This document shows positions 37,072 to 53,851 of a stretch of DNA of 64,000 nt, in pieces; position 1 is the first letter of the stretch; every line of letters begins with the position of its first letter. The notes beneath the pieces are model-generated. The model searched no databases and was not told where the DNA came from. It saw only the letters and a list, made by a program, of their open reading frames with translations. The position numbers were made by a program, and so were the translations under genes. Origin of the DNA: an uncultured bacterium (GTDB lineage: Bacteria > Acidobacteriota > Thermoanaerobaculia > Multivoradales > JAHZIX01); NCBI GenBank assembly GCA_965368975.1, contig CBDUPA010000004.1, positions 64,001 through 128,000 on the forward strand, given 5' to 3'.

Positions 37072-37078
37072 TTCCCTC

Positions 37079-37543: not shown

Positions 37544-38568
37544 GACGTGCGTCTTCGCCGCGAGCGGGTTCCAGTTTGCCACGATGGCCGAGGCAGGATG
37601 GCTACAACATGGTCATCCTGGTCATCGCCGTCACCCTGCTCACCGTTGCAACCGCCGCCGTCCTGCCCTTGTGGAGCACGGCCATGCAACGCGACAAGGA
37701 AGACGAACTGATCTTCCGCGGTCTCCAGTACGCCGAGGCCGTGCGCCTGTTCCAGGCGCGCAACGGCCGCTACCCAGTGCGTCTCGAAGAGCTGATCGAA
37801 GTCAAGCCACGCTGTATCCGCCAGCTCTATCCCAACCCCATGTCCGAAGATGGCGAATGGGAACTCGTCTTCGCCAACACTGGTCAGCCGTCCCGGAATC
37901 CCCAGTTGACCGTCGGCGGCGATCCCTCCCGCAACCCGCGACCTGACGGCCCGCAACTCGATGCCACTGGCGATGGTCAAGGTCGTCCGACTTCCGCCGA
38001 GCAAGACGCTGCAAGCCGTGGCAGCGACCGCGGTGTTGGTGGTCTGAGCGGCACGGGAGGCTCTGGCTCCGGCTTGGGTTCAAACCTGGAGGAGAGTGAC
38101 CTGCGCGAAAGCCAGAGCGCCTTTGGTGGTGCCGCCGTTGGGGGTAAACGTCAGCGCACTGGCCCGATCATTGGTGTTTTCGCCAAGTCAGACGAGACGT
38201 CGATCAAGACCTTCATGGGGCAGCAAACCTACGAGCAGTGGATCTTCACGGTCGAGATGGTCGCCGGTCACTTGGCCCTGCCCGATCGTGCACCCCTGGT
38301 GCCGTCTGCCGCGACGCTCGGCCGTCCGTATCTGGACGGCATCGAGCCGTTGATCAAGATTCCGACGCGTCAGGAGGGGCAGGGTGGTGGCGGTCAGGGT
38401 GGAGTGCCTGGGCAACCAGGCCCGCCTGGAGCGGGGCAGCCGCTTCAGCCAGGCCAGCCCGGAGCCGCGCCGGGGGGTGGCCGTCCGGCGAATCCCTTTG
38501 GTGTGCCCGGTGGACTCCCTGGCCAGCAGCGCCCGGGTCGAGGGTCGTCGGGCCGCGGGGATAGCTGA
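37537..38568 (+). CDS. Minor pseudopilin-like protein with Gly/Pro/Gln-rich tail
   Basis: DG|YNMVILVIAV (no Glu5), EDELIFRGLQY, YPVRLEEL, IRQLYPNPM. Confidence 0.75.
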   Translation: MVRRASSPRAGSSLPRWPRQDGYNMVILVIAVTLLTVATAAVLPLWSTAMQRDKEDELIFRGLQYAEAVRLFQARNGRYPVRLEELIEVKPRCIRQLYPNPMSEDGEWELVFANTGQPSRNPQLTVGGDPSRNPRPDGPQLDATGDGQGRPTSAEQDAASRGSDRGVGGLSGTGGSGSGLGSNLEESDLRESQSAFGGAAVGGKRQRTGPIIGVFAKSDETSIKTFMGQQTYEQWIFTVEMVAGHLALPDRAPLVPSAATLGRPYLDGIEPLIKIPTRQEGQGGGGQGGVPGQPGPPGAGQPLQPGQPGAAPGGGRPANPFGVPGGLPGQQRPGRGSSGRGDS

Positions 38569-38572
38569 TCCC

Positions 38573-39163
38573 CTACGGGGCGGCGCTGAACAGGCCGGCG
38601 AAGCCCATGAAGGCCATCGACAGGATGCCGGCCATGATCAAGCTCATGGCAGTGCCGCGCAGGATGGAAGGGATCGAGGAGAGTTCGGCTTCTTCGCGCA
38701 GGCCGGCCATCAAGACGAGCGCAAGTGTCAGGCCGCCGCCGGCGCCTAGGGCGAAGACGATGCCCTCGAGCACGCCGTACTCGCGGCTGGTCTGGAACAG
38801 CGCCAGGGCGAGAATCGCGCAATTGGTGGTGATCAGCGGCAGGAAGATGCCGAGGGCCTGGAACAGCACGGGACTGACCCGCCGGATCACCATCTCGACG
38901 AACTGCACGGTGCTGGCGATCACGACGATGAAGCTGATCAGGCGCAGGTAGGGCGCGTACGGCAGCACGAAAGCTTCCAGGAAGGACGCCGCCAGCGAGG
39001 TGATCACCATCACGAAGATGTTGGCCATTCCCAGACGCAGGGCGGTCGCCAGGCGTCCCGAGACGCCGAAGAAGGGACACAAGCCGAGGAAGTACGACAA
39101 CGTAAAGTTGTTCACCAGCAGGGCGCTGACGAAGATCCACAGCAGCTGGCCGGAGTTGTTCAT
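38573..39163 (-). CDS. rnfA: Rnf electron transport complex subunit A
   Basis: LVNNFTLSYFLGLCPFFGVS, LGIFLPLITTNCAILA, SMAFMGFAGL. Confidence 0.93.
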   Translation of the reverse strand: MNNSGQLLWIFVSALLVNNFTLSYFLGLCPFFGVSGRLATALRLGMANIFVMVITSLAASFLEAFVLPYAPYLRLISFIVVIASTVQFVEMVIRRVSPVLFQALGIFLPLITTNCAILALALFQTSREYGVLEGIVFALGAGGGLTLALVLMAGLREEAELSSIPSILRGTAMSLIMAGILSMAFMGFAGLFSAAP

Positions 39164-39876
39164 GCCGCCTCCTCCTGGCTCTTGCGCTTATCTTGGCTGG
39201 CCCGTTGCGCGTCGGCCGCCTGCTGCAGTCGCCGGGCCGCCTTGTCGCGGGCTTCGCGCAGGCTGGCGAAGAGCAGTAGCAAGAAGCCCAGCATCAGGAA
39301 GCCACCCGGCGGCAGGATCATGATCACCCAGGGTTCGAAGTTGGGTCCGAACAGGGATCTACCAAAGAGCGCACCGCTGCCCAGGACCTCGCGCGCACCG
39401 CCCAGCACCACCAGGGCGAGGGTGAAGCCGGCCCCCATGCCGGCGGCGTCCGCCAGCGCCGGGCCGATACGCTGCTTGGAGGCGAAGGCTTCCTGGCGAC
39501 CGAGGATCAGGCAGTTGACCACGATCAGGGAGATGAAGGCGCCGAGCTCGCGGTGGACGTTCGGCACCAGGGCCTGCAACAGCAGGTCGGCGACGGTGAC
39601 GAAGGTGGCGATGATCAGGATGTAGGTGGAGATGCGTACTGGTCGCGGAATCCAGTGCCGTAGCGCCGACACCAGGAAGCTGGAGCCGACCAGCACGAAG
39701 AAGGTGGCGCCGCCCATGGCCAGGCCGTTGACGCCGCTGTTGGTCACCGCCAGGGCTGGGCACATGCCGAGTACCTGGACGAAGACGGGGTTTTCGCGCC
39801 ACAGGCCCTTGACGAATTCCGAGGTCAGGTCGGGGCGCGGGTCTGGCGGCAGCACCGGCAGCAGGGGTTCACTCAT
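39160..39876 (-). CDS. rnfE: Rnf electron transport complex subunit E
   Basis: GLWRENPVFVQVLGMCPALAVTNS, LIVVNCLILGRQEAFASK, ILPPGGF; true start ATG 39876. Confidence 0.93.
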   Translation of the reverse strand: MSEPLLPVLPPDPRPDLTSEFVKGLWRENPVFVQVLGMCPALAVTNSGVNGLAMGGATFFVLVGSSFLVSALRHWIPRPVRISTYILIIATFVTVADLLLQALVPNVHRELGAFISLIVVNCLILGRQEAFASKQRIGPALADAAGMGAGFTLALVVLGGAREVLGSGALFGRSLFGPNFEPWVIMILPPGGFLMLGFLLLLFASLREARDKAARRLQQAADAQRASQDKRKSQEEAA

Positions 39877-40486
39877 GGTGAACCTCGGGCAGGCGCTCGA
39901 GCCATTGGGCGTTGGCACTGTTGATGATCTCGACCACGGCACGCGAGGAAATGGTGGCGCCGCTGATGGCGTCGACCTGGTGCGCGGCCTGGGCGTCGTC
40001 CTGCACCAGCTCGACCCGTGGGGACACGGCCAGGTCACGGAAGGCGGCCTGGAAGTCGGGGTCCTTGTAGATGCGGTCACCCAGGCCTGGCGTCTCGCGG
40101 CTCTCGAGGATCGCCAGGCCGACGATGCGCCCGCGCTGCGGGTCGTAGCCGTAGAGCAGGCGGATGGTGTCCTGGAAGCCGGCGCCTTCGCCACGAATGG
40201 CGTAGCCCACCAGGGTGTCGTCCGCGTAGCCTGCGTAGACCATGGCTGCCGCGGTTGCATCGTCCCCGGTTGGGGCGCCGGATGAGTACTCCAGAACCAA
40301 GCGTTCCATGCGCTGGGCGCCGGGCAGCACCTGGAAGACGGCGCGCTCCAGGGCGGCGGCCTGGTTGGCGCGGATGGTCGGCAAGGTGGCCTGGTGCACG
40401 GTGGCGATGGTGAGGCCGGAGAACAGGCCGGCGACGGTGAGTGTCGCCACCAGACGTAGAGTGCTCTCGCCCGCTGGGCGCTTCAT
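39869..40486 (-). CDS. rnfG: Rnf subunit G (covalent FMN)
   Basis: N-terminal TM, GFQDTI, ETPGLG, DAISGATISS FMN-Thr motif. Confidence 0.92.
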   Translation of the reverse strand: MKRPAGESTLRLVATLTVAGLFSGLTIATVHQATLPTIRANQAAALERAVFQVLPGAQRMERLVLEYSSGAPTGDDATAAAMVYAGYADDTLVGYAIRGEGAGFQDTIRLLYGYDPQRGRIVGLAILESRETPGLGDRIYKDPDFQAAFRDLAVSPRVELVQDDAQAAHQVDAISGATISSRAVVEIINSANAQWLERLPEVHHE

Positions 40487-41487
40487 GGCAGCCCCCGAGC
40501 GTGCCCGAAGGCGCGAGGTTGTGTGACCCGCTCGAGCAGCGGCGTGGCCGCGTTCATCAGCAGGATGGCGTACATCACGCCTTCCGGCAGGCCACCCCAG
40601 ATGCGGATCAGCACCACCAGCAGGCCGATGCCGAGGCCGAAGAACCAGGCACCGCGCGGGGCGAGCGGCGAGGTCACCGGGTCGGTGGCCATGAAGACGG
40701 CGCCGAACAGCAGGCCGCCGGAGGCGAGCATGAACCAGGGCGACGGGTAGCGCTCAGCGTCGAGGGCGAAGAACAGGCCGGAGAGGGCGGCGACGGCGAG
40801 CAGAATGGCGGTCGGAATGCGCCAGTCGAAGGCGCGCCGCAGCAGCAGCCAGAGGCCACCCAGCAGGATGGCGGCGGCGCTGGTCTCGCCCAGGCTGCCG
40901 GCGACGTGCCCCCAGACCAGGTCGGGCAGCGGCGTCGCTTCCTGCGTGAACTTCATCAGGTTCAGCGGCGTCGCGCCGCTCAGGCCGTCTGGCGGCGGTG
41001 GTGGGCTGAGGAAGGGCCAGGCGAAGGTGCTGGGCAGCAGGGTCGTGGGGCCGGAGGGTCGCACCCAGGTGGTCAGCGCGGTCGGGAAGGCGGCCTGCAA
41101 GAAGGCTCGGCCCACCAAGGCCGGGTTGAAGAGGTTCTGGCCCAGGCCGCCCCACATCAGCTTGCCCATGCCCATACCCACCGCGCCACCCAGGAAGGCC
41201 ATCCACAGCGGCAGCGAAGGGGGCAGGGTGAGGCCCAGGAGGGCTCCGGTCAGCAAGCCGCTGCCATCGGTGGTGGCACCCGACGTGCCCCACAGGCGTT
41301 CGCAACCGACGCTACCGGCGGTGGCCGCCAGCACGACCAGCAGGGCACTGAGACCGAAATTCCACACCGCCACTGCTAGTACTGGCAGCAGGGCCAGCTG
41401 CACGTCGGTCATCAGGGCGGGGGTGGTGACCCCTTGGCGCAGGAAGGGCGCCGCCTGGACGATGAGGTGAGGCTGGCGTCGACTCAT
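40483..41487 (-). CDS. rnfD: Rnf subunit D
   Basis: GGLGQNLFNPALVGRAFL, DGLSGATPL, GSLGETS, FMATDPVTSP, EGVMYAILLMN; true start ATG 41487. Confidence 0.93.
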   Translation of the reverse strand: MSRRQPHLIVQAAPFLRQGVTTPALMTDVQLALLPVLAVAVWNFGLSALLVVLAATAGSVGCERLWGTSGATTDGSGLLTGALLGLTLPPSLPLWMAFLGGAVGMGMGKLMWGGLGQNLFNPALVGRAFLQAAFPTALTTWVRPSGPTTLLPSTFAWPFLSPPPPPDGLSGATPLNLMKFTQEATPLPDLVWGHVAGSLGETSAAAILLGGLWLLLRRAFDWRIPTAILLAVAALSGLFFALDAERYPSPWFMLASGGLLFGAVFMATDPVTSPLAPRGAWFFGLGIGLLVVLIRIWGGLPEGVMYAILLMNAATPLLERVTQPRAFGHARGLP

Positions 41488-42875
41488 GCCTTGGTCTCCG
41501 ATGCCTTCGTCTCCGGGCGTGGCGCGGGCTTTGGAGCCTGACGCGCGCGCAGCTGACCTTTGGCCACCCGGATCAGCTGCACGATCGGGATGTTCGATGG
41601 ACAGGCGAAGCTGCAGGAGCCGCACTCGACGCAGTCCAGGGTGTGCAGGTCGGCGAGCTCGTCGAGCCGGCCGACGCGCGCCAGGCGTGCCAGGCGCGAC
41701 GGATTCAGATACTGCGGGCAGGCCTCGACGCAGCGGCCGCAGCGAATGCAGGCATACTCCTTGGCCAGGCGGGCGGTCTCTTCGGTGAACGCCAGGATAC
41801 CAGAGGTGCCCTTGAGCACCGGTACATCCAGGCTGGCCAGCGGCATGCCCATCATCGGCCCGCCCATGACCACCTCGCGCACCTGCGACTCTAGCCCGCC
41901 GCAGTGGTCGAGCAGCGCACGCACCGGCGTGCCCACCGGCACCAGCAGGTTGGCGGGACGGCGCACGCCCGGGCCGGCGACGGTGACGACACGCTCGATC
42001 AGCGGCACGCCATGATCGAACCAGCTGGCCAGAGCAGCCATGGTGGCGACGTTGTTGACCAGCATCTCGACGTCCAGCGGCAACTTGCCCGCCGGCACCT
42101 CGACGCCGAAGATGGCCTCGATCAGCATCTTCTCGGCGCCCTGCGGGTACTTGACCTCCAGCGGTACCACGCGCACCGGCACCCCGCCGAGGTGGTTGTC
42201 GGCGGCGGCCAGCTCGCCGCGCAGCGTGTCGAGGGCGTCCGGCTTGTTGAGCTCGACGCCGATCACCGCTTCCTCGACGCCCAGCCGCTGTGCCAGGATC
42301 TCGATGCCGCGCAGGATCTGCCGTGGCTGCTCCACCATCAGCCGGTGGTCGGCGGTCAGGTAGGGTTCGCACTCGCAGCCGTTGATCACTAGGTGACGCA
42401 AGCGCTTGCCCTCGGGTAGGCGGTACTTGACGTGCGACGGAAAGGCGGCGCCGCCCATGCCCACCAGGCCGGCATCCTGGACCTGCTGCACGAACTCGTC
42501 GGCACTCAGTTCCTGCCAGGGGATCGCTGGACCTTCGGGCGGCTGCTGGTCGGCGAAGGGATCGGCGTCGATCACCAGCGCCGGCTTCCACTGGCCAGCG
42601 GGATGATGACGCGGACCCAGTGCACGGACGCGGCCGGTGACCGGGCTGTGCAGGGTGGTGGAGACGAAGCCGTCGGCGGCCGCCACCGGCTGACCGCGCC
42701 GGACCTCCTCGCCCGGCTGCACCAGCGGTCGCGCGGGAGCGCCGGCGTGCTGCGACAAGGGCAGGACGTAGCTGTCCACAAACGGCATGCGCTCGATGCG
42801 CAGGTGTTCGGTGGCGTCCTTGTGTTCCTGTGGATGGATGCCGTGACGGAAGGTGCGCACCGGCACGCTGCTCAT
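41484..42875 (-). CDS. rnfC: Rnf subunit C
   Basis: PLSQHAGAPA, GLVGMGGAAFPSHVK, NGCECEPYLTAD, KYPQGAEK, GGPMMG, CIRCGRCVEACP, CVECGSCSFACP. Confidence 0.95.
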   Translation of the reverse strand: MSSVPVRTFRHGIHPQEHKDATEHLRIERMPFVDSYVLPLSQHAGAPARPLVQPGEEVRRGQPVAAADGFVSTTLHSPVTGRVRALGPRHHPAGQWKPALVIDADPFADQQPPEGPAIPWQELSADEFVQQVQDAGLVGMGGAAFPSHVKYRLPEGKRLRHLVINGCECEPYLTADHRLMVEQPRQILRGIEILAQRLGVEEAVIGVELNKPDALDTLRGELAAADNHLGGVPVRVVPLEVKYPQGAEKMLIEAIFGVEVPAGKLPLDVEMLVNNVATMAALASWFDHGVPLIERVVTVAGPGVRRPANLLVPVGTPVRALLDHCGGLESQVREVVMGGPMMGMPLASLDVPVLKGTSGILAFTEETARLAKEYACIRCGRCVEACPQYLNPSRLARLARVGRLDELADLHTLDCVECGSCSFACPSNIPIVQLIRVAKGQLRARQAPKPAPRPETKASETKA

Positions 42876-45800
42876 GATGCCTCCTCGCCTTCCAGCATCA
42901 GGCTGAGGAAGCGTTGCTTGATGCGCTCGGCGGTGCTGCGCTGCCAGGCTTCGTGTCGCAGGGGGTCATCGGCACCATCTGCAGTGCCGGCATCCTGGGC
43001 CGCACCTTGTACGCTCTCCGCCGGGCCGCTCAGCCGGTGCAGCAGCCGCGACGTCGTCAGCTGTTGCTGCAGCGCCGCGGTCAGCTCCGGGGTCGGCTGC
43101 TGCTCTGCGAAGTAAGCCGCAAAGCGCTGCTGGCGCTGGGCCCAGTGCACGGCGGCTTGCAAGGTCTCGTCAGCCTCCAGATCACCATTCTCCGTGCTCG
43201 CGTGCAGCCGCAGCGTCGAGAACGGGCCTGAGAACACCGGGCCTGGGGACAATGCCGAGCCCGGGCCGGCCTCGCGTTGGAAGAGAGGAAAGACGCGCGA
43301 GGTGACGGCTTCCCGGGCTCGGCAGAGGGTTTCCTCGGGGGCAAAACCGTGCCGCGAGGGGCTCGGCGCATAGAGGCGTAGGACGGCGGTTCCGGGGTGG
43401 CGCAACACCGTCTCGACGCTGGCCACCAGGTGTTGCGGATGGGCGATCGACGTCTGCGCCAGCGCCGTGTGCGCGCGGCCGAGTAGCAGCGGCATGGGGT
43501 CGAGATCGATGGATTGCGGCGGCTGCAAGGTGTCGTGGTCGGTGGCCGGCAGGCCGAGGCGGAGGTCGGCCAGGAGTAGTAGCTTGATCGGGGCGTCGAT
43601 GGACTGCAGCGCCAGCAGAGCCTCGAACTCGCCCGGCCGCAGCGAAGCTTCGGCGGCGAGCACGAAGAGCGGCGGACACAGGTGACGTTCGTCTGAACTC
43701 AGCTGCTGCCAGGGCAGCGAGAGGGGAATCGGGTCGTCCATCTTCACCGTGGACGCATCATCGAGCAGCGTGCGGGCATGGCGCAGCAGGGCCGCGACCT
43801 CACCGGTGCGGGTCATCTGGGCTTCGGCCACGCCGCGTGCCAGTGCCGCTACCTCGCCAGGGCCAGCGAAGCTGACCGCGGAGGCGAAGACGTTGTACGG
43901 GAAGCGGCCGCTCCACTCGGCCAGGCTGCCGGCGGCGACCACCGCACTCCAGGGGACCGGCGCTCGACGCCACCGGTCCGCGAAGTCGGCGAGTTGGCGT
44001 GCCGCGGTGACCAGGCGGCGCAAGTGTGGGATGTCGACCTGCGGCTGCTCCAGCGCTGCCTCGACTTTGGCGCTCAGCTGCGCCAGTTCGGCCTGGGGCG
44101 CGGCCAGGGCGTCGAGCCCGCGGGCCAGGGCGTCGAGGTCGCTGTCTGGCAGGGCACCTTCGAGTGTCCGGTGGATGGCGGCCGCTAGCTCGTCGCGCAA
44201 CTCGTCTAGCTGCTCGTTCCACTGCCTGCGACGCGGCAGCAAGCAGGCGCTGGCGGCACCCAGGACCTGCCGCACGGCGATTGCCTCGCCGCTACCCGCC
44301 TCGGCACCCGTGGCGGCCAGGATCCGGCGGTGGTCGGCGGGCAGCAGGGCGGCGGCCAATGGATCGAGTCGTGGCTCGAGCGCGGGCTGTTCGAGCGTGG
44401 ACTGAGCGAGCGCGTCGGTGTTGAGTGGCGGTAGTGTGTTCAGCAGGTCGACGCGCGTGCGTTCGAGGCTGGCGCGCCCGGCGTCCAGTGGCGCGGCGTT
44501 CAACGCCTCGGGCTTGCAGGCGGCGATGCACAGCCCGCAGGCGGTGCAGGCATCCGGGTCGATAGCGAGGCTGAACAGCTGTGGCTTGGGTATGCCTTCG
44601 AAGAATGGGGCGTCGAAGAAGCGGGCGGTGCGACCGAGCTGGAGCGTGGCGACCTCGTCGCGCAAATGAGGGAAGGCTTCGCGGATCAACTGCTTGCGCT
44701 CGGCGGGCAGCGGGGAAGTCTCGAGCACGCTGCCGAGGGCGGCGTCGAGCAGCGGGCCGGCGGTCGCGCCCGGGTTCGTTTCCGTGCCGGGGTTCTCGCG
44801 CAGCGCCGTTTCCAGGCCGCTGGCGAGGGCGCCGAGCACCATGCGCAGGGGCGTCACCGGTTTGCCGGCTTCGCTGGCCCGGCGCAGTCCCAGCTCGAGC
44901 AGGGCCTTGGCGGAGAAGACGGCCGGGTGGATCGCGGCTTCCGGACAGACGCTCCAGCAGGCACCGCTACCGGTGCAGCGCGACGAGTCGAGAGCCGGCA
45001 GACGGTCGGGGAGCCGGGGTGGTCGCAGGCTGGCGCTCAGCGGTGGTTCGAGTCCCAGGGCCAGGTAGGGGTCGGGAATCAGGTCAGGCGTCGCGATGCG
45101 GCTGCGGAAGTCTGGCAAGGGACTGTCGTCCTGGTCCTGGTGAGGGCTGTGCTGGTGCAGGCGACGCGCGGCGGCTGGCAGTGCCGTGGTGGCCGCGGGT
45201 TCGGTCGTGGTGGCACGCAGGCCGAGCGGGGCGGCGTCGGGGTAGGAACGCAGCAGGGCGTCGATGGTCGCTTGCCGCTTGGGGTGAGCCTGGAGGTCCG
45301 GCGCCAGATCGAGGCCGAGGAAGCGCGGGATCGCCGCGGCAGCTTCCGTCGCCGGCCGTGAGCTACGCTTGCGCTTGCCGTTCGTCGTCGCACGGCTCTG
45401 CAGCAGCCGTCGGACGAGCTGTTCCAGGTCGGCAGCCTGCAGCGCCGTGCCGCCGAGGCCGTAGAGCACGCTGTGCAGGGTGGGGGCGTCGGCGGCGCGG
45501 GAACCCCTCTCATGAACCCCGCCCAGCACCCTACCCACCGCCGCTTGCAGCTGTTGGGTCAGGGGACCCTCGAGGGTCGCGGTCACTGGCGTACGTTCGA
45601 GCACCGCTACGTGAGCAACGCCTGCCTGTGCCGCTGCGGTCAGAGCCTCGACCATCTCCGCGTCCGGGAAGGGGCTGAGCAGGTGCAGGCCGAGTACGCC
45701 GAGCCGGACACGTTCCTTGGCAGGGCGCTCCGCTAGATGATCCGCCAGCGCGCGCGCGCCCGCGATCGCCGTGCCCATCGCCACCACCGCGACCTCGGCG

Positions 45801-46621
45801 TCCTCGAGTCGGTATCGACTCACCGGGCCGTGGTCGCGGCCGGTCCGCTCGGCCAGCCGCTGGCAGGCCCGGTCGAAGGCGGGGCGCAGCCCTGGCCGCA
45901 GGTAGACGGAGCGTGCGGCTACAGCGGCGGCGAAGCTCTCGGCGCTGGCGGGACCGGCGGCGGCGGTCGGCTGCTCGCTGTCGTGCCAGCGCGGTACCCG
46001 CCGTCGATGGCGACCGAAGATCAGTCGCTGGGCCTCGTCCGGCGGATGGATGAGCTCCTCGGGGCGCCCTAGCAGTTCGCGCAGCAGAGCGGCGGCCGGC
46101 AGTTCGACGTCGACCGGCTGGCGGGCGATCTCAGGGTCGAGGGCGATCACCACGGGGGTCAGGGCTTGCTCGGCCAGCTGTCGCCCGAGCACGGCGAAGT
46201 CGATCACTTGCTGGGTGTCGGCCGCGACCAAGGTCACCGCGCCACTGCCGGCCGCGGCATGCCAGGAGTGATGACCGGCGGCGGTGGGCGCAACGTCCGT
46301 GCCACCCGGTTCCAGGCCCAGGTAGGCCAGCAGCGGTAGACTTTGAGACGCTGCGGCGGCCAGCGAGGCTCGATCCGAGCCGTGGGGATCGAGGACGGCG
46401 GTGGCCCGACGGCCGCCCAGGGCGAGACCGACGGCGCGGGCCAGATCTGCCGGGCCATGGCTCGCTTCGGGCGCCACCGCGGCTTCCATCAGGGCCACCG
46501 CGGCAGCGCCGTCCAGCCTGCGCGGTAGTCCTTCGGCGAGCGGGATGTGGTTCGTCGTCGGGTCGAGCCCGAGCAGGCGACGGACCCAGGGGCGGCGCAG
46601 TGCGGCGTTCCAATCAGGCAT
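42872..46621 (-). CDS. Pyruvate:ferredoxin oxidoreductase (NifJ)-fold protein with degenerate catalytic motifs and a ferredoxin domain (1249 aa)
   Basis: PFOR remnants LDGAAAVA, YRLEDAEVAVVAMGT, LLSPFP, VLER, YGLGG, AVTSRVFPLF; Fe-S motifs CTGSGACWSVCP and CTACGLCIAACKP. Confidence 0.8.
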   Translation of the reverse strand: MPDWNAALRRPWVRRLLGLDPTTNHIPLAEGLPRRLDGAAAVALMEAAVAPEASHGPADLARAVGLALGGRRATAVLDPHGSDRASLAAAASQSLPLLAYLGLEPGGTDVAPTAAGHHSWHAAAGSGAVTLVAADTQQVIDFAVLGRQLAEQALTPVVIALDPEIARQPVDVELPAAALLRELLGRPEELIHPPDEAQRLIFGRHRRRVPRWHDSEQPTAAAGPASAESFAAAVAARSVYLRPGLRPAFDRACQRLAERTGRDHGPVSRYRLEDAEVAVVAMGTAIAGARALADHLAERPAKERVRLGVLGLHLLSPFPDAEMVEALTAAAQAGVAHVAVLERTPVTATLEGPLTQQLQAAVGRVLGGVHERGSRAADAPTLHSVLYGLGGTALQAADLEQLVRRLLQSRATTNGKRKRSSRPATEAAAAIPRFLGLDLAPDLQAHPKRQATIDALLRSYPDAAPLGLRATTTEPAATTALPAAARRLHQHSPHQDQDDSPLPDFRSRIATPDLIPDPYLALGLEPPLSASLRPPRLPDRLPALDSSRCTGSGACWSVCPEAAIHPAVFSAKALLELGLRRASEAGKPVTPLRMVLGALASGLETALRENPGTETNPGATAGPLLDAALGSVLETSPLPAERKQLIREAFPHLRDEVATLQLGRTARFFDAPFFEGIPKPQLFSLAIDPDACTACGLCIAACKPEALNAAPLDAGRASLERTRVDLLNTLPPLNTDALAQSTLEQPALEPRLDPLAAALLPADHRRILAATGAEAGSGEAIAVRQVLGAASACLLPRRRQWNEQLDELRDELAAAIHRTLEGALPDSDLDALARGLDALAAPQAELAQLSAKVEAALEQPQVDIPHLRRLVTAARQLADFADRWRRAPVPWSAVVAAGSLAEWSGRFPYNVFASAVSFAGPGEVAALARGVAEAQMTRTGEVAALLRHARTLLDDASTVKMDDPIPLSLPWQQLSSDERHLCPPLFVLAAEASLRPGEFEALLALQSIDAPIKLLLLADLRLGLPATDHDTLQPPQSIDLDPMPLLLGRAHTALAQTSIAHPQHLVASVETVLRHPGTAVLRLYAPSPSRHGFAPEETLCRAREAVTSRVFPLFQREAGPGSALSPGPVFSGPFSTLRLHASTENGDLEADETLQAAVHWAQRQQRFAAYFAEQQPTPELTAALQQQLTTSRLLHRLSGPAESVQGAAQDAGTADGADDPLRHEAWQRSTAERIKQRFLSLMLEGEEAS

Positions 46622-47486
46622 GGGCTCCGACCTCCTCCCGCGGAGCTTGCGGTGGTGGCTCGACCTCCTGCAGTTCCAGGAACTGTGCCCCCTCGACCCA
46701 GCGGATAGCGCCGGTGGGGCAGCGCCAGGTCGCCGCTGGCGTCGCCGGGCCGCCGGCACCGTAGTCCACCACGGGCAAGCCGTCCTGCATGCGGATCAGG
46801 CCAGCCGGTGCGTCCTGGGCGCAGCGGCCGCAGGCGTCGCAGGCCACGGTGCACAGGCGGCGGGCCTGCTCGGCCTCGAGCGGCGCTCGGCACTGCACGA
46901 TCAGGTGGTGCGACAGCGGCAGGATCTCGAACAGGTCGCGTGGGCAGGCGTCGACGCAATCACCGCAGGCGGTGCACTTGTCGACATCGACCTCCGGCAG
47001 CTTCCAGGCGTTCATGTGGATGGCCCCGAAGGTGCAGGCGACGTCGCAGTCCGCGTGCCCCAGGCATCCCCACGAACACTCCAGGCCGCCGCCGCCCACC
47101 AGGTGCGCGGCGCGGCAGGAGTCGAAACCCTGGTAGGCCGCGACTTGCAGGGCACGGCCGACGCCACCGGCGCAGTGCAGGCGGGCGACGCGCTTCTCTT
47201 CGGCGCCGACCTCGATGCCCAGCAGGGCCGCGATGGCGTCCAGCTGTGGCCGGGTCGACACCGTGCACTTCGAGGGAGCCACGTCACCGTGCAGCAGTTT
47301 CTCGGCCAGGCCACGACAGCCGGGTTCGCCGCAGGCGCCGCAATTGGTGCCGGGCAGCATCTCGACCACCGCTTCCAGTCGTGGATCTTCCTCCACCGCC
47401 AGGAAGCGATGCGCCAGCGCCAGGGCGAGCCCGAAGGCCAGGCCGAGGCCCGCCATGATCGCCGCCGCTGTCAGCATTCCCGACAT
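46614..47486 (-). CDS. rnfB: Rnf subunit B
   Basis: N-terminal TM, LPGTNCGACGEPGC, CSWGCLGHADCDVAC, CTACGDCVDACP, CDACGRC; start ATG 47486 after AGGAGG. Confidence 0.92.
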   Translation of the reverse strand: MSGMLTAAAIMAGLGLAFGLALALAHRFLAVEEDPRLEAVVEMLPGTNCGACGEPGCRGLAEKLLHGDVAPSKCTVSTRPQLDAIAALLGIEVGAEEKRVARLHCAGGVGRALQVAAYQGFDSCRAAHLVGGGGLECSWGCLGHADCDVACTFGAIHMNAWKLPEVDVDKCTACGDCVDACPRDLFEILPLSHHLIVQCRAPLEAEQARRLCTVACDACGRCAQDAPAGLIRMQDGLPVVDYGAGGPATPAATWRCPTGAIRWVEGAQFLELQEVEPPPQAPREEVGAHA

Positions 47487-47502
47487 CGTGACCTCCTGGC
47501 CC

Positions 47503-50037
47503 CTACTGGAAAGGCTGCGCGCGGCGCACCCATTCTTCGAGGCCCGGCTCGTCGGGGTCGAGCGGGGTACCCGGGTGGATGATCTTTGCCGTACAGCGTT
47601 CGGCGGCCTTGACCAGCTGCTGGAAGGTGCCGGCGCTGGCGTCCGCAATGTAGGCCTGCTTGTTCTCGTCGTAGGCGAACATCGCGGAGTTGATCTGAAT
47701 GCACTCGTTGCAGCTCGTGCACAGGGGAGAGTCGATGTAGGCCTCGAGTGTGGCGGTGTTGGCCTTGGAGGGGGCGACGGGGGGAGCGCTCGGGTTTGGC
47801 TTGCTCGGGGTTGGCTCCTTCGATTCGCTCGGAGCCGGAGCCGTCTCGGTGGCTTTGGGCTCGGCGAGCGGGACGGCCGCCCGGGATGCCGACGACGCTG
47901 GAAACGACGCAGCCGAGGCGGAGGGGGTGGCTTCGCGCAGCAAGGCGGTGGTGAGACGCTCGGCGAGCTGCTCGGCGGTTTGTCGGCGACCGCGCGCCAG
48001 CTCGTCGGCGTGCTGTGCTTCGAGGCGTGCGCGCTCGTCGCGGCGGGCCAGCTCGACCGCGCGCTCCACGTACTCGCTGCGCGTGCCGGCCATCTCCTGC
48101 AGCGTGCGCCAGTAGTCCAGGCGATCACGGCAGGTGGTGGCCAGGGTGCGGGGAACCAGGGCTCGCCGCAGCGTGCTGTCCGCGTCCACTACCCAGACGA
48201 ACGGCAGACGCCGCAGTGCGTCTTCTTCGTCCAGCGTCAGCCAGGACGCCAGCTCCAGGAGGGCGTCGTCGTGGCAGCCGGCGGGTAGCAGCCGCAGGCG
48301 GCGGGCCACGGCCGGGTCGAGGAGCGCGAAGTCGACGTAGGTGAAGGTCAACCGCAGCTGGTCCTCTTCGCCCTGCGTGTCCACCACCGCCAGGTCGTAC
48401 GCTGGCCAGTCTTGCTCAGCGGCCGGATTGCCTCCGAAGTCCATGCGCTGAGCCCAGCTGGTGCCCGCTTCCGGGTCATAGAGGAAGAGCGGGTGGGCAC
48501 GGCCGTCCAGGGCACCACCGCTGCACAGCCAAGGAGGAAGGTCTGCGGCCGCGACCGGCGACGTGCCGATCACGTGCAGGGCGGTGCGGTGGCGCTCGGC
48601 GGCCCGCAGGAAGCCGTGGATGCTGTGCAGGGGACGCAGGGCCAGGGTTTGATGTACCAGCGCCTCGCGGTGGCTGAGGCCGAAGTAGGCGAGCTCGAGG
48701 CGGAAGCCTTCCCAGGTCTCGGCAGGGAATGGCTCTTGAGAAGAGGGCTCGGGCGCCTGCAGGTGGCTGCGACGACTCGGGTCGACCTCGACCAGGATCT
48801 GGATCGGGCGTCCGGAGAGCAGCAGCTGCGACAGCGACGCCAGAGTGCTGCCGTCGAGCTGCTCGGCGTCGAGACGGACCGCCAGCGCCGGCAGCAGGCG
48901 GGCCTCCTCGTCCGAGAAGGCGCGCCAGTCGAAGTGCCGCAGCCAGGGCGTGTGGATCTCGCTCTCGTAGTCACCGGCCAGTTCCAGGCGAGCGGTGCGA
49001 GCGGCGCGCAGGATGCGCGTCAGTCGGGACGCCTCGCGATCAAAGGCGGCGGCGGCGGCGCCGCATGGGTCGTCGGCCCGTTGCACGGCCCAACCGGCGG
49101 TCTCGGTCAACGGGGGGGGCTGCGCCGAGGCTTGCGCTGACACGAAGAGCCTCGGCGGCGATGGCTCGCTGAACTCGAGCAGCGCGGCGTGAGTGTCCTC
49201 CAGTCGCTGGCGACGGCCGTGATCGTTCGCGCTGTGTCCCTCGTGCTCATGAGCCAGACGCTGGTGCAGAGCGCTGGTGTCCAGGAAGCGCGTTCCGAAG
49301 GCGCCGAGTGCGCCTTCTTCGTCATGCTTGCCGTTGTCGGCGTCGCCGGTCGCACCAGCGTTGCCGTTCGCGCCGGCCTCGCCGCTACGCCGGCGCGCTT
49401 CGGCGAGCAGACCGGCCAGCTTCTCTACCCAGCCGCGCACCTGCAGGCGCAGGCGGGCCCAGGTCGCTACCTGGCGCTGCTGCAGTACGGCCCGCAACAG
49501 GTGCAACGGAACCTCGTCGTCGGCCCCGAGCCAGACACCGTCCTCGGGTACGGCCTCGAGCAAGCGCTGCAGATCAGCCTGTAGCTGCTCGCGGACCGCC
49601 GCCGCAGGATCCAAGTCTTGCACCATGGTGTCCGCCGCGCTCCGCAGTAGCGGCCTGGCGGCGGTGGGTTGTGGCAGTAGCAGGTCAGCCATGTAGCGTT
49701 CCAGGCGTTGCACGTTGTCGCGCAGCGGGCCGGCGCTGATGCCGGCGTGGCGCAGCGCCCGCCCCAGCAGTTCGGCGGGCGACAGGCAGAGGATCGGCTC
49801 GCTGCTCTCTTCACCCGCCGCGGCCAGGAAGAGTGGGAAATCGCTGCGCAGCTGGACACCGTGGCGGAAGGGGCTGAACAGGGCCGGCCAGCAGGCCGTG
49901 GCCGGGTCGCCCGGCTCGGCCAGGGTCGGAGCCTCGTCGGAGAGGCCGAGGTGGAACGCACGCAGCGCGCGCACCTGGGTACGCTCGAGCGTCTCCTGGT
50001 CGGCGGGTAGCGTTGGTTTCAAGTTGGCAGCATCCAT
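47503..50037 (-). CDS. 844-aa protein: PFOR C-terminal-like region, Pro/Ala/Ser linker and C-terminal ferredoxin
   Basis: LLLSGRPIQILV, LAYFGLSHREALVHQT, ALDGRAHPLFLYDP..GNP..DWP, TYVDFAL; C-terminal CTSCNEC...AAERCTAKIIHPG. Confidence 0.75.
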   Translation of the reverse strand: MDAANLKPTLPADQETLERTQVRALRAFHLGLSDEAPTLAEPGDPATACWPALFSPFRHGVQLRSDFPLFLAAAGEESSEPILCLSPAELLGRALRHAGISAGPLRDNVQRLERYMADLLLPQPTAARPLLRSAADTMVQDLDPAAAVREQLQADLQRLLEAVPEDGVWLGADDEVPLHLLRAVLQQRQVATWARLRLQVRGWVEKLAGLLAEARRRSGEAGANGNAGATGDADNGKHDEEGALGAFGTRFLDTSALHQRLAHEHEGHSANDHGRRQRLEDTHAALLEFSEPSPPRLFVSAQASAQPPPLTETAGWAVQRADDPCGAAAAAFDREASRLTRILRAARTARLELAGDYESEIHTPWLRHFDWRAFSDEEARLLPALAVRLDAEQLDGSTLASLSQLLLSGRPIQILVEVDPSRRSHLQAPEPSSQEPFPAETWEGFRLELAYFGLSHREALVHQTLALRPLHSIHGFLRAAERHRTALHVIGTSPVAAADLPPWLCSGGALDGRAHPLFLYDPEAGTSWAQRMDFGGNPAAEQDWPAYDLAVVDTQGEEDQLRLTFTYVDFALLDPAVARRLRLLPAGCHDDALLELASWLTLDEEDALRRLPFVWVVDADSTLRRALVPRTLATTCRDRLDYWRTLQEMAGTRSEYVERAVELARRDERARLEAQHADELARGRRQTAEQLAERLTTALLREATPSASAASFPASSASRAAVPLAEPKATETAPAPSESKEPTPSKPNPSAPPVAPSKANTATLEAYIDSPLCTSCNECIQINSAMFAYDENKQAYIADASAGTFQQLVKAAERCTAKIIHPGTPLDPDEPGLEEWVRRAQPFQ

Positions 50038-50050
50038 CGCGTCTTTCCAC

Positions 50051-51004
50051 TCAGATGACGAACTTGTCGAGAACGCGCTCCAGCCCTTCGAGTTTCTCGG
50101 TCTGGCTCATGTCGAGCCCGCGCACGGTGGTCTCGTCGTAACAGGGCGCTTGTGCGTTGCGGTACAGGAGGCCGATCGATACCGGATCGGTACCCTCCGC
50201 GTAGCGGCGGGCGGCTTCCAGGTCCGCGGGGTCGTGTTCAGCCTTCTTCTTGTATAGCCGCCCGACCGGCTCGTCGACCGGGATGCCGTCTTCGTGGACC
50301 AGCAGTTGCAAGCGATCTGGGTCGTTGCGTAGCTCCAGCAACACGTCGTCGGTGTAGGTGGGGCAGCGCTGCAGGATGTGGACGAAGGCGAGGCCCGGAT
50401 GGTCGGCGGCCAGGCGCAGGGTCTGGTAGAGGTGCATCGGATTCCAGTCGACGCTGCGCGCGACGAAGGAGACGTTGCACAAGCCGAGCGCGACCAGCGC
50501 CGGATTGAGCGGCGGCAACAGGGCACCGCCGGGGTGGGTGTTGGTGTGGTACCCGATTGGCGTGGTGGGCGAAGTCTGCTTCTTGGTCAGGCCGTAGATG
50601 TTGTTGTCGAACAGCATCACCGTCATGCGGCAGTTGTAGCGCAGCGCGTGCACCCAGTGGCCAGCGCCGATCGAGCAGCAGTCGCCGTCGCCGGTGGCGA
50701 CGAAGATGTGCAGATCGGGCCGACGGCTGCGAATACCCGCGGCCACTGGCAGCGGCCGGCCGTGCAGACCGTGGAAGCCGTAGGAGTGCATGTAGTGGGG
50801 GAAGCGACTCGAGCAGCCGATGCCGGACACCGCCACCAGCTTCTCGGGTGGGATCTGCTGGTCACGGCAGATGCGCTGCACCGCGGATAGCACCGCGTGG
50901 TCGCCGCAGGCCGGGCACCAGCGTGCTACGCCGCCGTCGTAGTTCTCGAGGGTGAAGTAGCGGTCGGGGACCTCGAAGGCCCAGTCGCTGTTCATGCCGA
51001 ACAT
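50051..51004 (-). CDS. korB: 2-oxoacid:ferredoxin oxidoreductase beta subunit (TPP-binding)
   Basis: WCPACGD, SGIGCSSR, LHGR, GDGD..FDNNIYGLTKKQTSPT, QRCPTY; substrate not determinable; alternative start at ATG 50995. Confidence 0.88.
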   Translation of the reverse strand: MFGMNSDWAFEVPDRYFTLENYDGGVARWCPACGDHAVLSAVQRICRDQQIPPEKLVAVSGIGCSSRFPHYMHSYGFHGLHGRPLPVAAGIRSRRPDLHIFVATGDGDCCSIGAGHWVHALRYNCRMTVMLFDNNIYGLTKKQTSPTTPIGYHTNTHPGGALLPPLNPALVALGLCNVSFVARSVDWNPMHLYQTLRLAADHPGLAFVHILQRCPTYTDDVLLELRNDPDRLQLLVHEDGIPVDEPVGRLYKKKAEHDPADLEAARRYAEGTDPVSIGLLYRNAQAPCYDETTVRGLDMSQTEKLEGLERVLDKFVI

Positions 51005-52887
51005 GCTGCCTCCTCACCGCGTTGCAGGCGGCGTTCGAGTTCGCGGACGATTGCGCGAGGGGGAATCGGCTGGCCGTGGACCACGGACCAGCAGCCGATG
51101 TCGTGCAGGGTGTGCTCGCGTAGTAGTCGCGCCAGCTGGCCGCTACGCCGGTATTCGGCAGGGATGCCGCTGTCCGCGGTGTCGCTGTAGTTCATCTCGA
51201 TCGTCATCACCTGGGTGAAGCGATCGAAGATGCCAGCCAGACCGGGCTCCAGCGGCGACAGGAAGCGCAGGTGCAGCGAGGAGACCTTGTGGCCGGCCTC
51301 GCGCAGCTGGTCGACGGCCTCCTCGAGCGCACCCAGGGTCGAGCCCCAACCCACCACCAGCAGATCGCCCTCGGGGTCCCCGTGGAGCGCCGGCGGCTTG
51401 AGCGTCGAGGCCAGGGTGGCCAGCTTGCGGCTACGCATGGCGCAACCGCGCTGGTTGCTCTCTGGGTCGTAGGCGACCTTGCCCAGGCGCGTGTGTGCCA
51501 GGCCGGTGAGCACGTACTCGCCACCGCGCTGCCCGGGGATCGGTCGTTGCGACAGGCCGGTCTCGGCATCCCAGTCGTAGGGTGCCACATCCTGCGGCCA
51601 GGGCGATTGGTCGACCGGCGGTGACAGCCACTCGGCGCTCGGTCGCGGACGCGGGAAAGGCTGGACGCCGGTGGCCAGGTTGGCGTCGGTGAGCACGAAG
51701 ACCGGTGTGCGGAAGTCTTCCGCCAGGCGTCGCGCCAGCACCATGAAGTGGAAACACTCCTCGATCGTCGCCGGCGCCAGCACCACTTTGGGGGCGTCGC
51801 CCGGCGTGCCGTGCAGCACTGCCAGCAGGTCTGCTTGCTCGACCTTGGTCGGCAACCCGGTAGACGGGCCCCCGCGCTGCACCAGCAGTACCACCAGCGG
51901 CAACTCGGCCATCACCGCGAGGCCGATGAACTCGGTCTTCAACGCCAGGCCCGGGCCGGAGGTGATGGTGCAAGCGGTCTTGCCGGCATAGCTGGCCCCC
52001 AGGGCGTAGCCGATGGCGGCGATCTCGTCCTCCGCCTGGTGCACGATACCGCCCACCGCGGGGAAGGCGGCGGCCAGGAAGTGCGAAACCGACGTCGCCG
52101 GGGTGATCGGATACATCGCCACCACCTCGATTCCCGCGGCCATGATGCCCAGACCTGCAGCCTGGTTTCCGTTCATCACCACCAGTTCCTGTTCGGTCGG
52201 CCGGGGTGGCACCTCGAAGCGCAGGTCGAGGCGTTCGGCGGCGAAGGACCAGCCAGCGCGCACTAGATCCTGGTTGGTCTCGACCACCTGCTCGCCCTTG
52301 CGTGCGAAGACGGCCTTCACCTCGTGCAGCGCCTTGTCCAGGTCGCGGCCGTAGATCTGGCACAGCACGCCGAGCACGAACATGTTGCGACCGACGCGGG
52401 CGTCGCCGGCAATCTCGGCGCAGGCCTCCTGCAGCGCCACCTCGATCACGTGTAGCCCGCGTTCCTGGAAGCTGGCCAGGGCCTCGGCATATTGCTGCCG
52501 GATCTCCTCCTGCGGGTCTTGCGCCCAGCTGCTCTCTAGCAGGATGACGGTGCCTTCGCGGTAGGCTTCCTGGGCGATGCGGCCGTAGATCACTTGCTCG
52601 TTGAACGCGACCACCAAGTCTGCCTCGTCGCCCAGGTTGGTCACCTTGCGGTCGGCGAAGCGTACTCGGATGCCGCTGGCTCCCGCCCGCGAGCGTGCCG
52701 GCGGCTTGATTTCGGCGGGAATGATTTCCACCGTCCAGACGCCGTTGCCCATCTTGGCGCAGACGGTGCCGAAGATCTGTCCGGCCTTCTGCGCACCTTC
52801 GCCCGAGTCACTGACGATTTCGACGATCGCCTGGTGTACGCGGGCCCTCTCTTGGACTCCTGCCGGAGTCGAGACTGCAGTACCCAT
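50992..52887 (-). CDS. korA: 2-oxoacid:ferredoxin oxidoreductase alpha subunit (gamma-alpha fusion)
   Basis: DSGEGAQKAG, MNGNQA, YPITPAT, QAEDEIAA, TSGPGLALKTE, QRGGPSTGLPTKVEQAD, GWGST. Confidence 0.88.
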   Translation of the reverse strand: MGTAVSTPAGVQERARVHQAIVEIVSDSGEGAQKAGQIFGTVCAKMGNGVWTVEIIPAEIKPPARSRAGASGIRVRFADRKVTNLGDEADLVVAFNEQVIYGRIAQEAYREGTVILLESSWAQDPQEEIRQQYAEALASFQERGLHVIEVALQEACAEIAGDARVGRNMFVLGVLCQIYGRDLDKALHEVKAVFARKGEQVVETNQDLVRAGWSFAAERLDLRFEVPPRPTEQELVVMNGNQAAGLGIMAAGIEVVAMYPITPATSVSHFLAAAFPAVGGIVHQAEDEIAAIGYALGASYAGKTACTITSGPGLALKTEFIGLAVMAELPLVVLLVQRGGPSTGLPTKVEQADLLAVLHGTPGDAPKVVLAPATIEECFHFMVLARRLAEDFRTPVFVLTDANLATGVQPFPRPRPSAEWLSPPVDQSPWPQDVAPYDWDAETGLSQRPIPGQRGGEYVLTGLAHTRLGKVAYDPESNQRGCAMRSRKLATLASTLKPPALHGDPEGDLLVVGWGSTLGALEEAVDQLREAGHKVSSLHLRFLSPLEPGLAGIFDRFTQVMTIEMNYSDTADSGIPAEYRRSGQLARLLREHTLHDIGCWSVVHGQPIPPRAIVRELERRLQRGEEAACSA

Positions 52888-52920
52888 GGTCCATGCCTCC
52901 CGTCAGGCACAGGAGCGACG

Positions 52921-53382
52921 TCAGTCGCCGGTGCCAAGATCCGTGTAGACAGAGTCGAGGAACAACTCGGTCTCCTCTACCTCGTGGGCATGGAGACGCT
53001 GTGCCAGGTCGGCGACGCCGCTGAGCAAGTCGGCCATCGGGCCGTTGCTGAGGGCGCGGGCGCTGCCCAACAAGTGGTCGAGATCACCGAGGAACTGTCG
53101 ATGCTCCTCGAAGAGGTGCTCCACTGAGGGCAGTAATTGCGGTGTCGATCGACCGACGGCAGCGCTCAGACCATCCTCGGCCTCCTCGGTCTCGAAGTGG
53201 GCGCGCAGCAGGGTCTGCAACTTCTCGAGATCCTCGGCCAGACGACCGGGGGCGTCGAGTTGCACGATCTCGTCGAGCAGGGCCGAGAGGGCCGCATGCT
53301 CGTCGGCAATACGAGTCTTGGCCGCAGCGGTAACCGCGGACTCTCTCTCTTCACTATTCGGCATCAGGGGCCTCTCTTCCAT
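52921..53382 (-). CDS. Hemerythrin-like (HHE cation-binding) protein
   Basis: DEH, AHFETEE, EEHRQF, AHEVEE: the H/HxxxE/H/HxxxE di-metal ligand pattern; start at 53382 or 53364. Confidence 0.8.
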   Translation of the reverse strand: MEERPLMPNSEERESAVTAAAKTRIADEHAALSALLDEIVQLDAPGRLAEDLEKLQTLLRAHFETEEAEDGLSAAVGRSTPQLLPSVEHLFEEHRQFLGDLDHLLGSARALSNGPMADLLSGVADLAQRLHAHEVEETELFLDSVYTDLGTGD

Positions 53383-53623
53383 TGCCTTGTGCCGGGTTGG
53401 CCCACCGTGTGGAGGTGGGCGTCTCCTGAAGCTCTGGAAGTGATGATGCCGTCGAGTTGGGACGTTGGCTATACCTGCCGGGGTGGTTCGGACGTTCTGG
53501 GCACTGTCCGAACAGGTGGCTCGCGCCTCGACAGGGCCAGCTGATCACGCCAAGCGATTCTTGGTGCCGCTCACTCCCCATCTGGGTAGTCTGGTCCACC
53601 GTCGTCAGTGATATTCTCGCGCC

Positions 53624-53851
53624 ATGGACAAGGAAAAAGTTGCCCGTGACGTACTTTCCCAGTTGAGTGGCGTCGACGCCGCCAAGATCGAGCCGAAGAT
53701 GGACCTGGTTGCTGACCTGGGGATCGACTCTCCGAAAGCTCTGCAACTGCTCGTCGAGCTGGAAGACCGCTTGAGCATCGAGATCAGCGACGAGGCGGCG
53801 GCTCGGATGGACACGGCGGGCGATATCTTCGACTTCTTAGCGACCGCGTGA
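53624..53851 (+). CDS. Acyl carrier protein
   Basis: 75 aa, acidic, DLVADLGIDSP phosphopantetheine site, ELED..IEISDEAA. Confidence 0.88.
   Translation: MDKEKVARDVLSQLSGVDAAKIEPKMDLVADLGIDSPKALQLLVELEDRLSIEISDEAAARMDTAGDIFDFLATA

Follow-up and report, generated by a model that had tools for sequence, protein, structure and literature searches.

An Rnf operon that also encodes KorAB and two apparently non-catalytic PFOR paralogues in an uncultured acidobacterium

The window analysed here is a 64,000-nucleotide stretch of a contig from an uncultured bacterium of the Acidobacteriota (CBDUPA010000004.1, positions 64,001 to 128,000), and the system in question is a set of eleven co-oriented genes on its minus strand (38573-53382). 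In order of transcription, these code for a hemerythrin-like protein, KorA, KorB, an 844-residue protein (p844), RnfB, a 1249-residue protein (p1249), and RnfC, RnfD, RnfG, RnfE and RnfA. Rnf complexes and 2-oxoacid:ferredoxin oxidoreductases (OFORs) are textbook partners, thought to communicate via free ferredoxin. Judging from the sequences, we lean towards the view that this operon encodes an Rnf ion-translocating ferredoxin:NAD+ oxidoreductase equipped with its own dedicated electron-input module, in which two relatives of pyruvate:ferredoxin oxidoreductase (PFOR), catalytically dead by their motifs, accompany an apparently intact KorAB. The order and orientation of the eleven genes are as described in an earlier sequence-only reading of the same DNA, and the junctions are as tight as it had claimed. 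From rnfB to rnfA all neighbours overlap by 4-8 nt (8 nt for rnfB/p1249 and rnfG/rnfE; 4 nt for p1249/rnfC, rnfC/rnfD, rnfD/rnfG and rnfE/rnfA), and the gaps upstream measure at most 33 nt (33 nt for hemerythrin/korA, 13 nt for korB/p844 and 16 nt for p844/rnfB, with a GGAGG ahead of the rnfB ATG), while korA and korB overlap by 13 nt if the listed ATG is taken.

The gene located between rnfB and rnfC (42872-46621, minus strand) codes for p1249, which has weak Pfam matches to POR_N, PFOR_II and Fer4. A relatives search with the single p1249 sequence returned no relative; alignment-based scans did find relatives, and the profile of the family (27 relatives) is colinear with full-length PFORs (E 3.4e-73 for 6cin and 1e-62 for 1b0p). 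The structure predicted for residues 1-1150 (predicted local distance difference test score, pLDDT, 79.6; predicted template modelling score 0.83) resembles OFOR alpha subunits at residues 31-438 (5c4i_A, Z 35.1, root mean square deviation (rmsd) 2.5; Z 33-35 with VIA-align) and beta subunits at residues 753-1139 (5exe_F, Z 21.0). For a comparison of motifs, the p844 and p1249 families were aligned with the canonical PFOR of the same genome and with two intact PFORs that carry a ferredoxin domain (PFOR-Fd). In the p1249 family, the domain I Glu, the GDG and SNTGGQ motifs of the site for Mg and thiamine pyrophosphate (TPP), and the three of the four proximal-cluster Cys that were examined are all replaced. 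Conserved Cys are found only in domain V, where the eight 2x[4Fe-4S] positions are each kept in 24-27 of the 27 sequences. The protein from the window falls into a short class lacking domain III (6 of the 27 sequences, itself included), leaving it with domains I, II, V and a VI-like domain. In comparison with the homodimeric PFORs of D. africanus (1b0p) and M. thermoacetica (6cin), p1249 is thus colinear and has the domain I, II, V and VI folds in common with them, but is without the TPP site, the proximal cluster and, here, domain III.

The second large protein, p844 (47503-50037, minus strand), is composed of a body (approximately residues 60-650), a long helix (655-703), an Ala/Pro/Ser-rich tether (704-761) and a C-terminal [4Fe-4S] domain (766-844). 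Its predicted structure has a pLDDT of 80.9, with the stretch 704-761 predicted to be disordered; across the family, the tether varies in length from 46 to 122 residues. One long family member (P0181, 1565 aa) carries two tandem tether-plus-ferredoxin modules at its C-terminus. The only Pfam match of p844 is Fer4_13 at residues 768-821 (PF13370, E 2.8e-4, 21.9 bits, below the cut-off of 24.5), and the fold of this domain is that of D. africanus ferredoxin I (1fxr_A, TM 0.84, rmsd 0.9 over 58 columns). Since the family profile, when compared with PDB sequences, found ferredoxin I only (1dax, E 5e-9), the link between p844 and PFOR had to be established by hhalign and fold search. The model of residues 69-651 matches residues 694-1170 of PFOR (6cin_A, Z 20.2, rmsd 4.9 over 290 residues with VIA-align), and p844 also matches a whole OFOR beta subunit (9bt4_C, Z 16.8). 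The Foldseek probability for the fold is 1.00. Residues 45-700 of p844 align with residues 520-1217 of p1249 in hhalign with 99.94% probability (E 2e-36). This homology is visible only by profile-profile comparison, as BLASTP between the two proteins gave nothing significant (best E 0.19). In the p844 family the GDG and SNTGGQ motifs and three proximal-cluster Cys are replaced while the TPP-binding fold is kept, and the only Cys invariant in 26 sequences (C773, C776, C779 and C815) all lie in the ferredoxin domain. Relative to homodimeric PFOR, p844 is therefore a body without domains I-III, TPP site or proximal cluster that has gained a C-terminal helix, a tether and a ferredoxin.

Taken by their sequences and predicted folds, p844 and p1249 are paralogues of PFOR descent which are catalytically dead and have kept Fe-S sites. 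The proposal in the sequence-only reading that both large proteins derive from PFOR is borne out by the profile match to 6cin, the hhalign alignment and the fold matches; its proposal that they are non-catalytic agrees with the loss of the TPP motif and the proximal Cys alongside retained Fe-S sites. The opposite possibility, namely that p1249 or p844 is still an enzyme using another cofactor or substrate, could draw on the folds of domains I, II and VI, which are well predicted and conserved. We consider it very improbable: the GDG/Asn Mg-TPP motif, the proximal Cys and, in the p1249 family, the domain I Glu (p844 has no domain I) are replaced in every aligned member, and the p1249 of the window has also lost domain III, which binds CoA.

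The catalytic part of the module would be supplied by KorAB. KorA (631 aa; 50992-52887, minus strand) has the domain order III-I-II and matches TIGR03710 (533.5 bits, cut-off 482.75) as well as Pfam POR, POR_N and PFOR_II. Its best solved relative is the 2-oxoglutarate:ferredoxin oxidoreductase (OGOR) of Magnetococcus marinus (6n2n_A, E 3.8e-82, residues 20-615). KorB (317 aa; 50051-51004, minus strand), the beta subunit with the TPP and [4Fe-4S] site, matches Pfam TPP_enzyme_C and PFO_beta_C, and has kept C30-x2-C33, GIGC64, GDG105...NN and C214 (in an RCP motif). The pair thus has the composition of a two-subunit OFOR, with a III-I-II alpha subunit, a beta subunit containing GDG...NN and four Cys, and no delta or ferredoxin domain. 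The M. marinus enzyme is similar in all of these respects, KorA aligning with it over its full length and KorB sharing its TPP motif, its four Cys and the absence of a ferredoxin domain; here, in contrast, KorAB is encoded together with Rnf and with a dead beta-like paralogue bearing a tethered ferredoxin. As far as motifs can tell, KorAB is the only catalytically competent 2-oxoacid enzyme of the operon, with one cluster per alpha-beta unit. Its substrate is presumably 2-oxoglutarate, and in this context it may be mentioned that sucC and sucD are inserted in the clusters of Sedimenticola-type bacteria and of an Escarpia symbiont.

The cofactor motifs of Rnf comprise the FMN/NADH domain and two 4-Cys motifs of RnfC, the SGAT flavinylation motifs of RnfD and RnfG, two Cys each in RnfA and RnfE, and the Fe-S domains of RnfB. 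This set is complete in the operon. RnfB (290 aa; 46614-47486) is a long polyferredoxin-type protein whose N-terminus is hydrophobic, and has Pfam matches to FeS (PF04060) and Fer4; it can be aligned at full length to 9eri_B (E 1.8e-48) and 7zc6_B (E 5.2e-43) over residues 1-261, and all of its 20 Cys are invariant across 29 cluster RnfBs. RnfC (41484-42875) is the NADH/FMN module (TIGR01945, 515 bits; Pfam Complex1_51K, RnfC_N and SLBB) and carries both 4-Cys motifs, CIRCGRCVEACP and CVECGSCSFACP. RnfD (40483-41487; TIGR01946, 298 bits; PF03116, E 1e-102) has its SGAT motif at position 170, and RnfG (39869-40486; TIGR01947, 102.9 bits against a cut-off of 102; PF04205) at position 175. The paired Cys are Cys39 and Cys122 in RnfE (39160-39876; TIGR01948, 228.6 bits; PF02508), and Cys29 and Cys115 in RnfA (38573-39163; PF02508, Rnf-Nqr, 175.5 bits), all six genes lying on the minus strand. 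KorAB and all six Rnf subunits appear functional, and the family matches and motif positions agree with the earlier statement that they keep their canonical motifs. The six subunits, their cofactor motifs and an RnfB of the long polyferredoxin type are shared with the Rnf complexes of solved structure, which we take to be those of Acetobacterium woodii (9eri), Clostridium tetanomorphum (7zc6) and Azotobacter vinelandii (8ahx). The operon differs from these in its gene order, B-[p1249]-C-D-G-E-A, where the PFOR relic separates rnfB from rnfC, and in having korAB and p844 in front. An additional subunit, RnfH, is described for the A. vinelandii complex in a 2025 review of RNF and NQR (PMC12174285), in the accessible text of which no accessory proteins of the p844 or p1249 kind appear.

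The sequence-only reading had staked itself on conserved synteny, and the gene order is indeed strongly conserved across about ten phyla. Pattern scans with one genome per species gave at least 558 p844 relatives among at least 599 pattern matches, and the counts below rest on the best 80 of these at least 558 p844 loci, from about ten phyla, with the loci having sufficient sequence as denominators. korB is upstream of p844 in 65 of 72 loci, and rnfB is the next gene after p844 in 53 of 68. rnfB is followed by p1249 in 48 of 50 loci as scored by script, to which one locus with a 3-nt overlap (L049) is to be added as the 49th, the last (L078) being a true exception. In 39 of 43 loci rnfC lies within 1.5 kb of p1249, and in the remaining four it lies beyond an insert of about 3 kb. 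The full order from korA to rnfE was found by script in 25 of the 36 loci that are long enough on both sides, and is also present in L020; the other ten consist of three loci that have the order plus an insert and end early, and seven without downstream rnf genes. Its recurrence in many unrelated genomes places the arrangement far beyond chance. The p844 loci belong to sulfur-oxidising Gammaproteobacteria (Woeseiaceae, Chromatiaceae, Sedimenticola, Thiomargarita), Planctomycetota, Acidobacteriota (Thermoanaerobaculia), Bacteroidota, Eisenbacteria, Actinomycetota (Solirubrobacterales), Spirochaetales and further groups. A search of 1.84 billion proteins yielded 1,624 representatives of the p844 family at E<=1e-30; its carriers include groups of ecological importance such as Woeseiaceae, tubeworm symbionts and large sulfur bacteria. 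In the phylum to which the window belongs it was found in 18 of 301 sampled genomes, and in a p1249 search of 41 related genomes none of the five from the same family matched. Identity across loci is of about 60-71% for KorA, mostly about 67-80% for RnfA, and about 22-43% for p844 and p1249. Such high identity across phyla, together with the patchy distribution, fits a transfer of the whole block between lineages.

The origin of the dead copies is indicated by relatives in which the PFOR is intact. One genome from the same taxonomic order as the window (G015) has, immediately upstream of rnfB, a 1707-aa PFOR-Fd which keeps every catalytic motif, and whose C-terminus consists of a helix, a tether and a ferredoxin as in p844. 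The p844 homologue that precedes this gene (L013:8867-11206) appears to be without a C-terminal ferredoxin, tblastn covering residues 25-700 only and Pfam giving no hit. In a second genome (G016), an rnfB-like gene adjoins an intact 1657-aa PFOR-Fd (L015:8980-14842), and rnfCDGEA are on a separate contig (L122), where neither the 8 kb upstream nor the 5 kb downstream contain an rnfB. The symbiont of Escarpia spicata holds both forms: one locus (L187) reads NuoF-like-korA-korB-p844-rnfB-p1249-sucC-sucD, and a second operon (L188, G337:C10) reads rnfB-[PFOR-Fd]-rnfCDGEA, with all catalytic motifs of the PFOR-Fd in place. A NuoF-like gene (Complex1_51K and NADH_4Fe-4S) also stands before korA in the Sedimenticola-type locus (L060:5460-6707), where sucC and sucD follow p1249 (L060:17983-20444). 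The arrangements in G015, G016 and the Escarpia symbiont indicate that a PFOR-type protein normally occupies the position next to rnfB, and that rnfB travels with the gene for it and not with the rest of the rnf set. On this sequence evidence, p844 and p1249 descend from a PFOR subfamily with a C-terminal ferredoxin encoded beside rnfB; the p1249 of the window is the apparently dead form of the rnfB-side PFOR insert, and p844 a paralogue that has retained the ferredoxin tail. The rnfB-[intact PFOR-Fd]-rnfCDGEA clusters of the Escarpia symbiont, G015 and G016 accordingly share with the window the slot and the PFOR subfamily, including tether and Fer4_13; the window differs in that its insert is dead and has lost the ferredoxin tail, catalysis being provided by KorAB. 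We know of no paper on these intact clusters. The earlier caveat that kor/por-rnf clusters exist in other bacteria was well placed, as in these relatives the slot is taken by an intact PFOR.

These observations lead us to hold, with moderate confidence, that the dead PFOR paralogues wire KorAB to RnfB, which would give a dedicated route, usable in both directions, that connects 2-oxoglutarate/succinyl-CoA with NAD(H) and is coupled to ion translocation. The ferredoxin of p844, on its disordered tether of about 60 residues, would take electrons from or give them to the KorB cluster, and the two [4Fe-4S] clusters of p1249 domain V would pass these electrons on to the polyferredoxin portion of RnfB. 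RnfA/E, RnfG, RnfD and RnfC would then conduct them to NAD+, with ions being translocated in the process. As scaffolds, the bodies of the dead PFORs would keep the carriers at KorAB and RnfB. To our knowledge, dimerisation of OFORs always involves the same core, which would allow a pseudo-PFOR to form a dimer with KorAB or with its paralogue. In the forward direction, oxidation of 2-oxoglutarate would pump ions; in the backward direction, NADH and the membrane potential would drive the carboxylation of succinyl-CoA. Hard-wiring would moreover spare the free ferredoxin pool low-potential electrons in cells that meet oxygen. The host genome (7.1 Mb in 59 contigs) offers some indication of the direction. 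The rnfC of this operon is the only one over the cut-off in the whole genome, which makes the operon the genome's only Rnf. Also encoded are a conventional 2-oxoglutarate dehydrogenase E1, a canonical 1264-aa PFOR with EKR domain (G000:C1:188013-191807), a second KorA (663.7 bits; G000:C8:55595-57379), and pieces resembling a multi-subunit OFOR (G000:C5:141934-144497). The presence of the E1 and of the canonical PFOR favours an oxidative or low-oxygen role here; for the sulfur-oxidising autotrophs that share the cluster we would favour a reductive one.

The wiring itself was proposed in the sequence-only reading, where the two PFOR-fold proteins were seen as scaffolds or wires joining KorAB to RnfB. 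Of this, the dead PFOR ancestry, the Fe-S sites and the synteny stand, while physical contact between the proteins and ion pumping without free ferredoxin are hypothetical. The single complex prediction, with p1249 residues 505-1135 and RnfB residues 30-290, each with its alignment, returned a score of 0.00 (mark 0.32), which speaks neither for nor against binding. The genes could alternatively be a co-regulated but loose module, p844 and p1249 being soluble, dedicated high-molecular-weight ferredoxins or adaptors that shuttle by diffusion, with no stable supercomplex. Such an arrangement would be in keeping with the general knowledge that OFORs and Rnf use free ferredoxins, with the second Rnf found in three of the five cluster-bearing genomes checked, and with the loci in which p844 stands apart from rnf (15 of 68, and an orphan in Thiocystis violacea, both taken up below). 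We regard it as possible and less probable than wiring, given that the start/stop overlaps from rnfB to rnfA place p1249 among the Rnf structural genes, that conservation of the large dead PFOR bodies extends across phyla, which would be costly for a simple carrier, and that in G016 rnfB has left rnfCDGEA for a PFOR-type gene.

Several points weigh against the hard-wired reading. The physical joining of KorAB, p844, p1249 and RnfB, the specificity of KorAB and the direction of operation are things that we infer. The second of the eight domain V ligands is Ser552 in the p1249 of the window, which thus has seven of the eight Cys, and one of the 27 p1249 relatives (P0021) is without nearly all of the domain V Cys. 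Three subunits score below the cut-off of their TIGR family, namely KorB (TIGR02177, 225.9 bits against 261.9), RnfA (TIGR01943, 216.8 bits, just below 229.3) and RnfB (TIGR01944, 68.5 against 68.7); for RnfA and RnfB, the marginal scores are offset by strong Pfam and PDB matches, and the set of six Rnf subunits is complete. The korAB-p844-rnfB-p1249-sucCD locus of the Escarpia symbiont has no rnfC in the next 4.4 kb. The 15 p844 loci without an adjacent rnfB include Thiomargarita-type ones, with rnfD/rnfG divergent upstream, and the cultured purple sulfur bacterium Thiocystis violacea DSM 208 has an orphan p844 homologue (L055:9938-12454). Its neighbours are TonB-dependent receptor genes on one side and an acyltransferase gene on the other, and neither kor nor rnf genes lie within 10 kb upstream or 2.5 kb downstream. 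These orphan and rnfB-less loci indicate that p844 can exist away from Rnf.

The first gene of the operon (52921-53382, minus strand) codes for a 153-aa putative hemerythrin/HHE-domain protein, assigned by PF01814 (E 7.5e-7; 30.1 bits, cut-off 25.3); it contains seven His and gave no NCBIfam match. Because such a gene is found directly upstream of korA in only 10 of the 52 testable related loci, it is considered accessory and not part of the core. Its position at the head of the operon, here and in those ten loci, would nevertheless suit a protective or regulatory role, in which the dead PFORs shield, assemble or regulate the oxygen-sensitive clusters of KorAB and RnfB, perhaps with the hemerythrin-like protein, and the main electron flux runs elsewhere. 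Many carriers of the cluster are, judging from their names, aerobes or microaerophiles, and in a 2026 review of PFOR diversity (PMC13768988) an extra domain is described as guarding the D. africanus PFOR from O2. The features conserved in p844 and p1249 are however the Fe-S ligands of electron-transfer domains, and a shield needs no tethered ferredoxin, which makes this role improbable next to the wiring of KorAB to RnfB.

A literature search found no paper describing the korAB-p844-rnfB-p1249-rnfCDGEA unit, the supplements of PMC6315080 and PMC11636981 being outside its reach; a publication already characterising the cluster, which the sequence-only reading had named as a point against itself, was thus not found. 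The unit is also absent from the accessible parts of a Thiomargarita paper (PMC4914600), of the PFOR diversity review (PMC13768988) and of a Ferrigenium preprint. The closest published idea is that of the reductive tricarboxylic acid (TCA) cycle gene clusters of tubeworm symbionts, which include Rnf, Hdr-Flx and PntAB (PMC6315080, PMC11636981), and in which 2-oxoglutarate:ferredoxin oxidoreductase genes are likewise grouped with complexes supplying low-potential electrons. The focus there is in contrast on the four-subunit KorABCD with Hdr-Flx, and a dimeric korAB and a 'PFOR-like' gene receive only a brief mention in the main text. In Endoriftia, these two genes, which may correspond to those of the cluster, are reported to drop in expression together (PMC11636981).

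If the components are hard-wired, this would explain how low-potential chemistry is carried out in bacteria living with oxygen, and the TCA cycle would gain an energy-conserving step or, in reverse, an energy-driven CO2-fixing step. It would also give a function to two large unannotated protein families, p844 and p1249 being a clear case of enzymes recycled as electron-transfer scaffolds. The most far-reaching version of this reading, which we put forward tentatively and consider rather doubtful in its entirety, is that KorAB, p844, p1249 and Rnf form a single membrane-bound, ferredoxin-free 2-oxoglutarate:NAD+ machine, which would pump ions during the decarboxylation of the TCA cycle and, in the backward direction, fix CO2 into 2-oxoglutarate at the expense of NADH and the membrane potential. 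Together with the intact PFOR-Fd clusters, it might then represent a class of Rnf that incorporates modules for 2-oxoacid oxidoreduction and has travelled by gene transfer among oxygen-exposed bacteria, abundant sulfur oxidisers of marine sediments and symbioses being among them.

The surroundings of the operon are unrelated to it, with secretin and pseudopilin genes converging on one side, and a divergent gene set followed by mfd on the other. Relatives of this genome's Mfd carry for the most part the labels Thermoanaerobaculia or Acidobacteriota, with identities of 58-66%. A scan of 38000-54200 for promoters and terminators detected no site of either kind, from which nothing can be concluded in such G+C-rich DNA, and a search for sequencing runs, RNA included, with the stretch 42800-51100 listed none. 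On the rnfA side, the plus strand (33825-38568) codes for a secretin of type II secretion with a C-terminal cohesin-like domain and TPR, then for two prepilin-type N-methyl proteins; next comes the gene for a 343-aa Gly/Pro-rich protein, which runs towards rnfA and ends 4 nt from it. Beyond the hemerythrin-like gene, a 75-codon open reading frame on the plus strand (53624-53851), divergent from the operon, is predicted to encode an acyl carrier protein-like product with a 'GIDSP' motif, and its stop codon overlaps the GTG start of a DUF374 gene (53848-54615).

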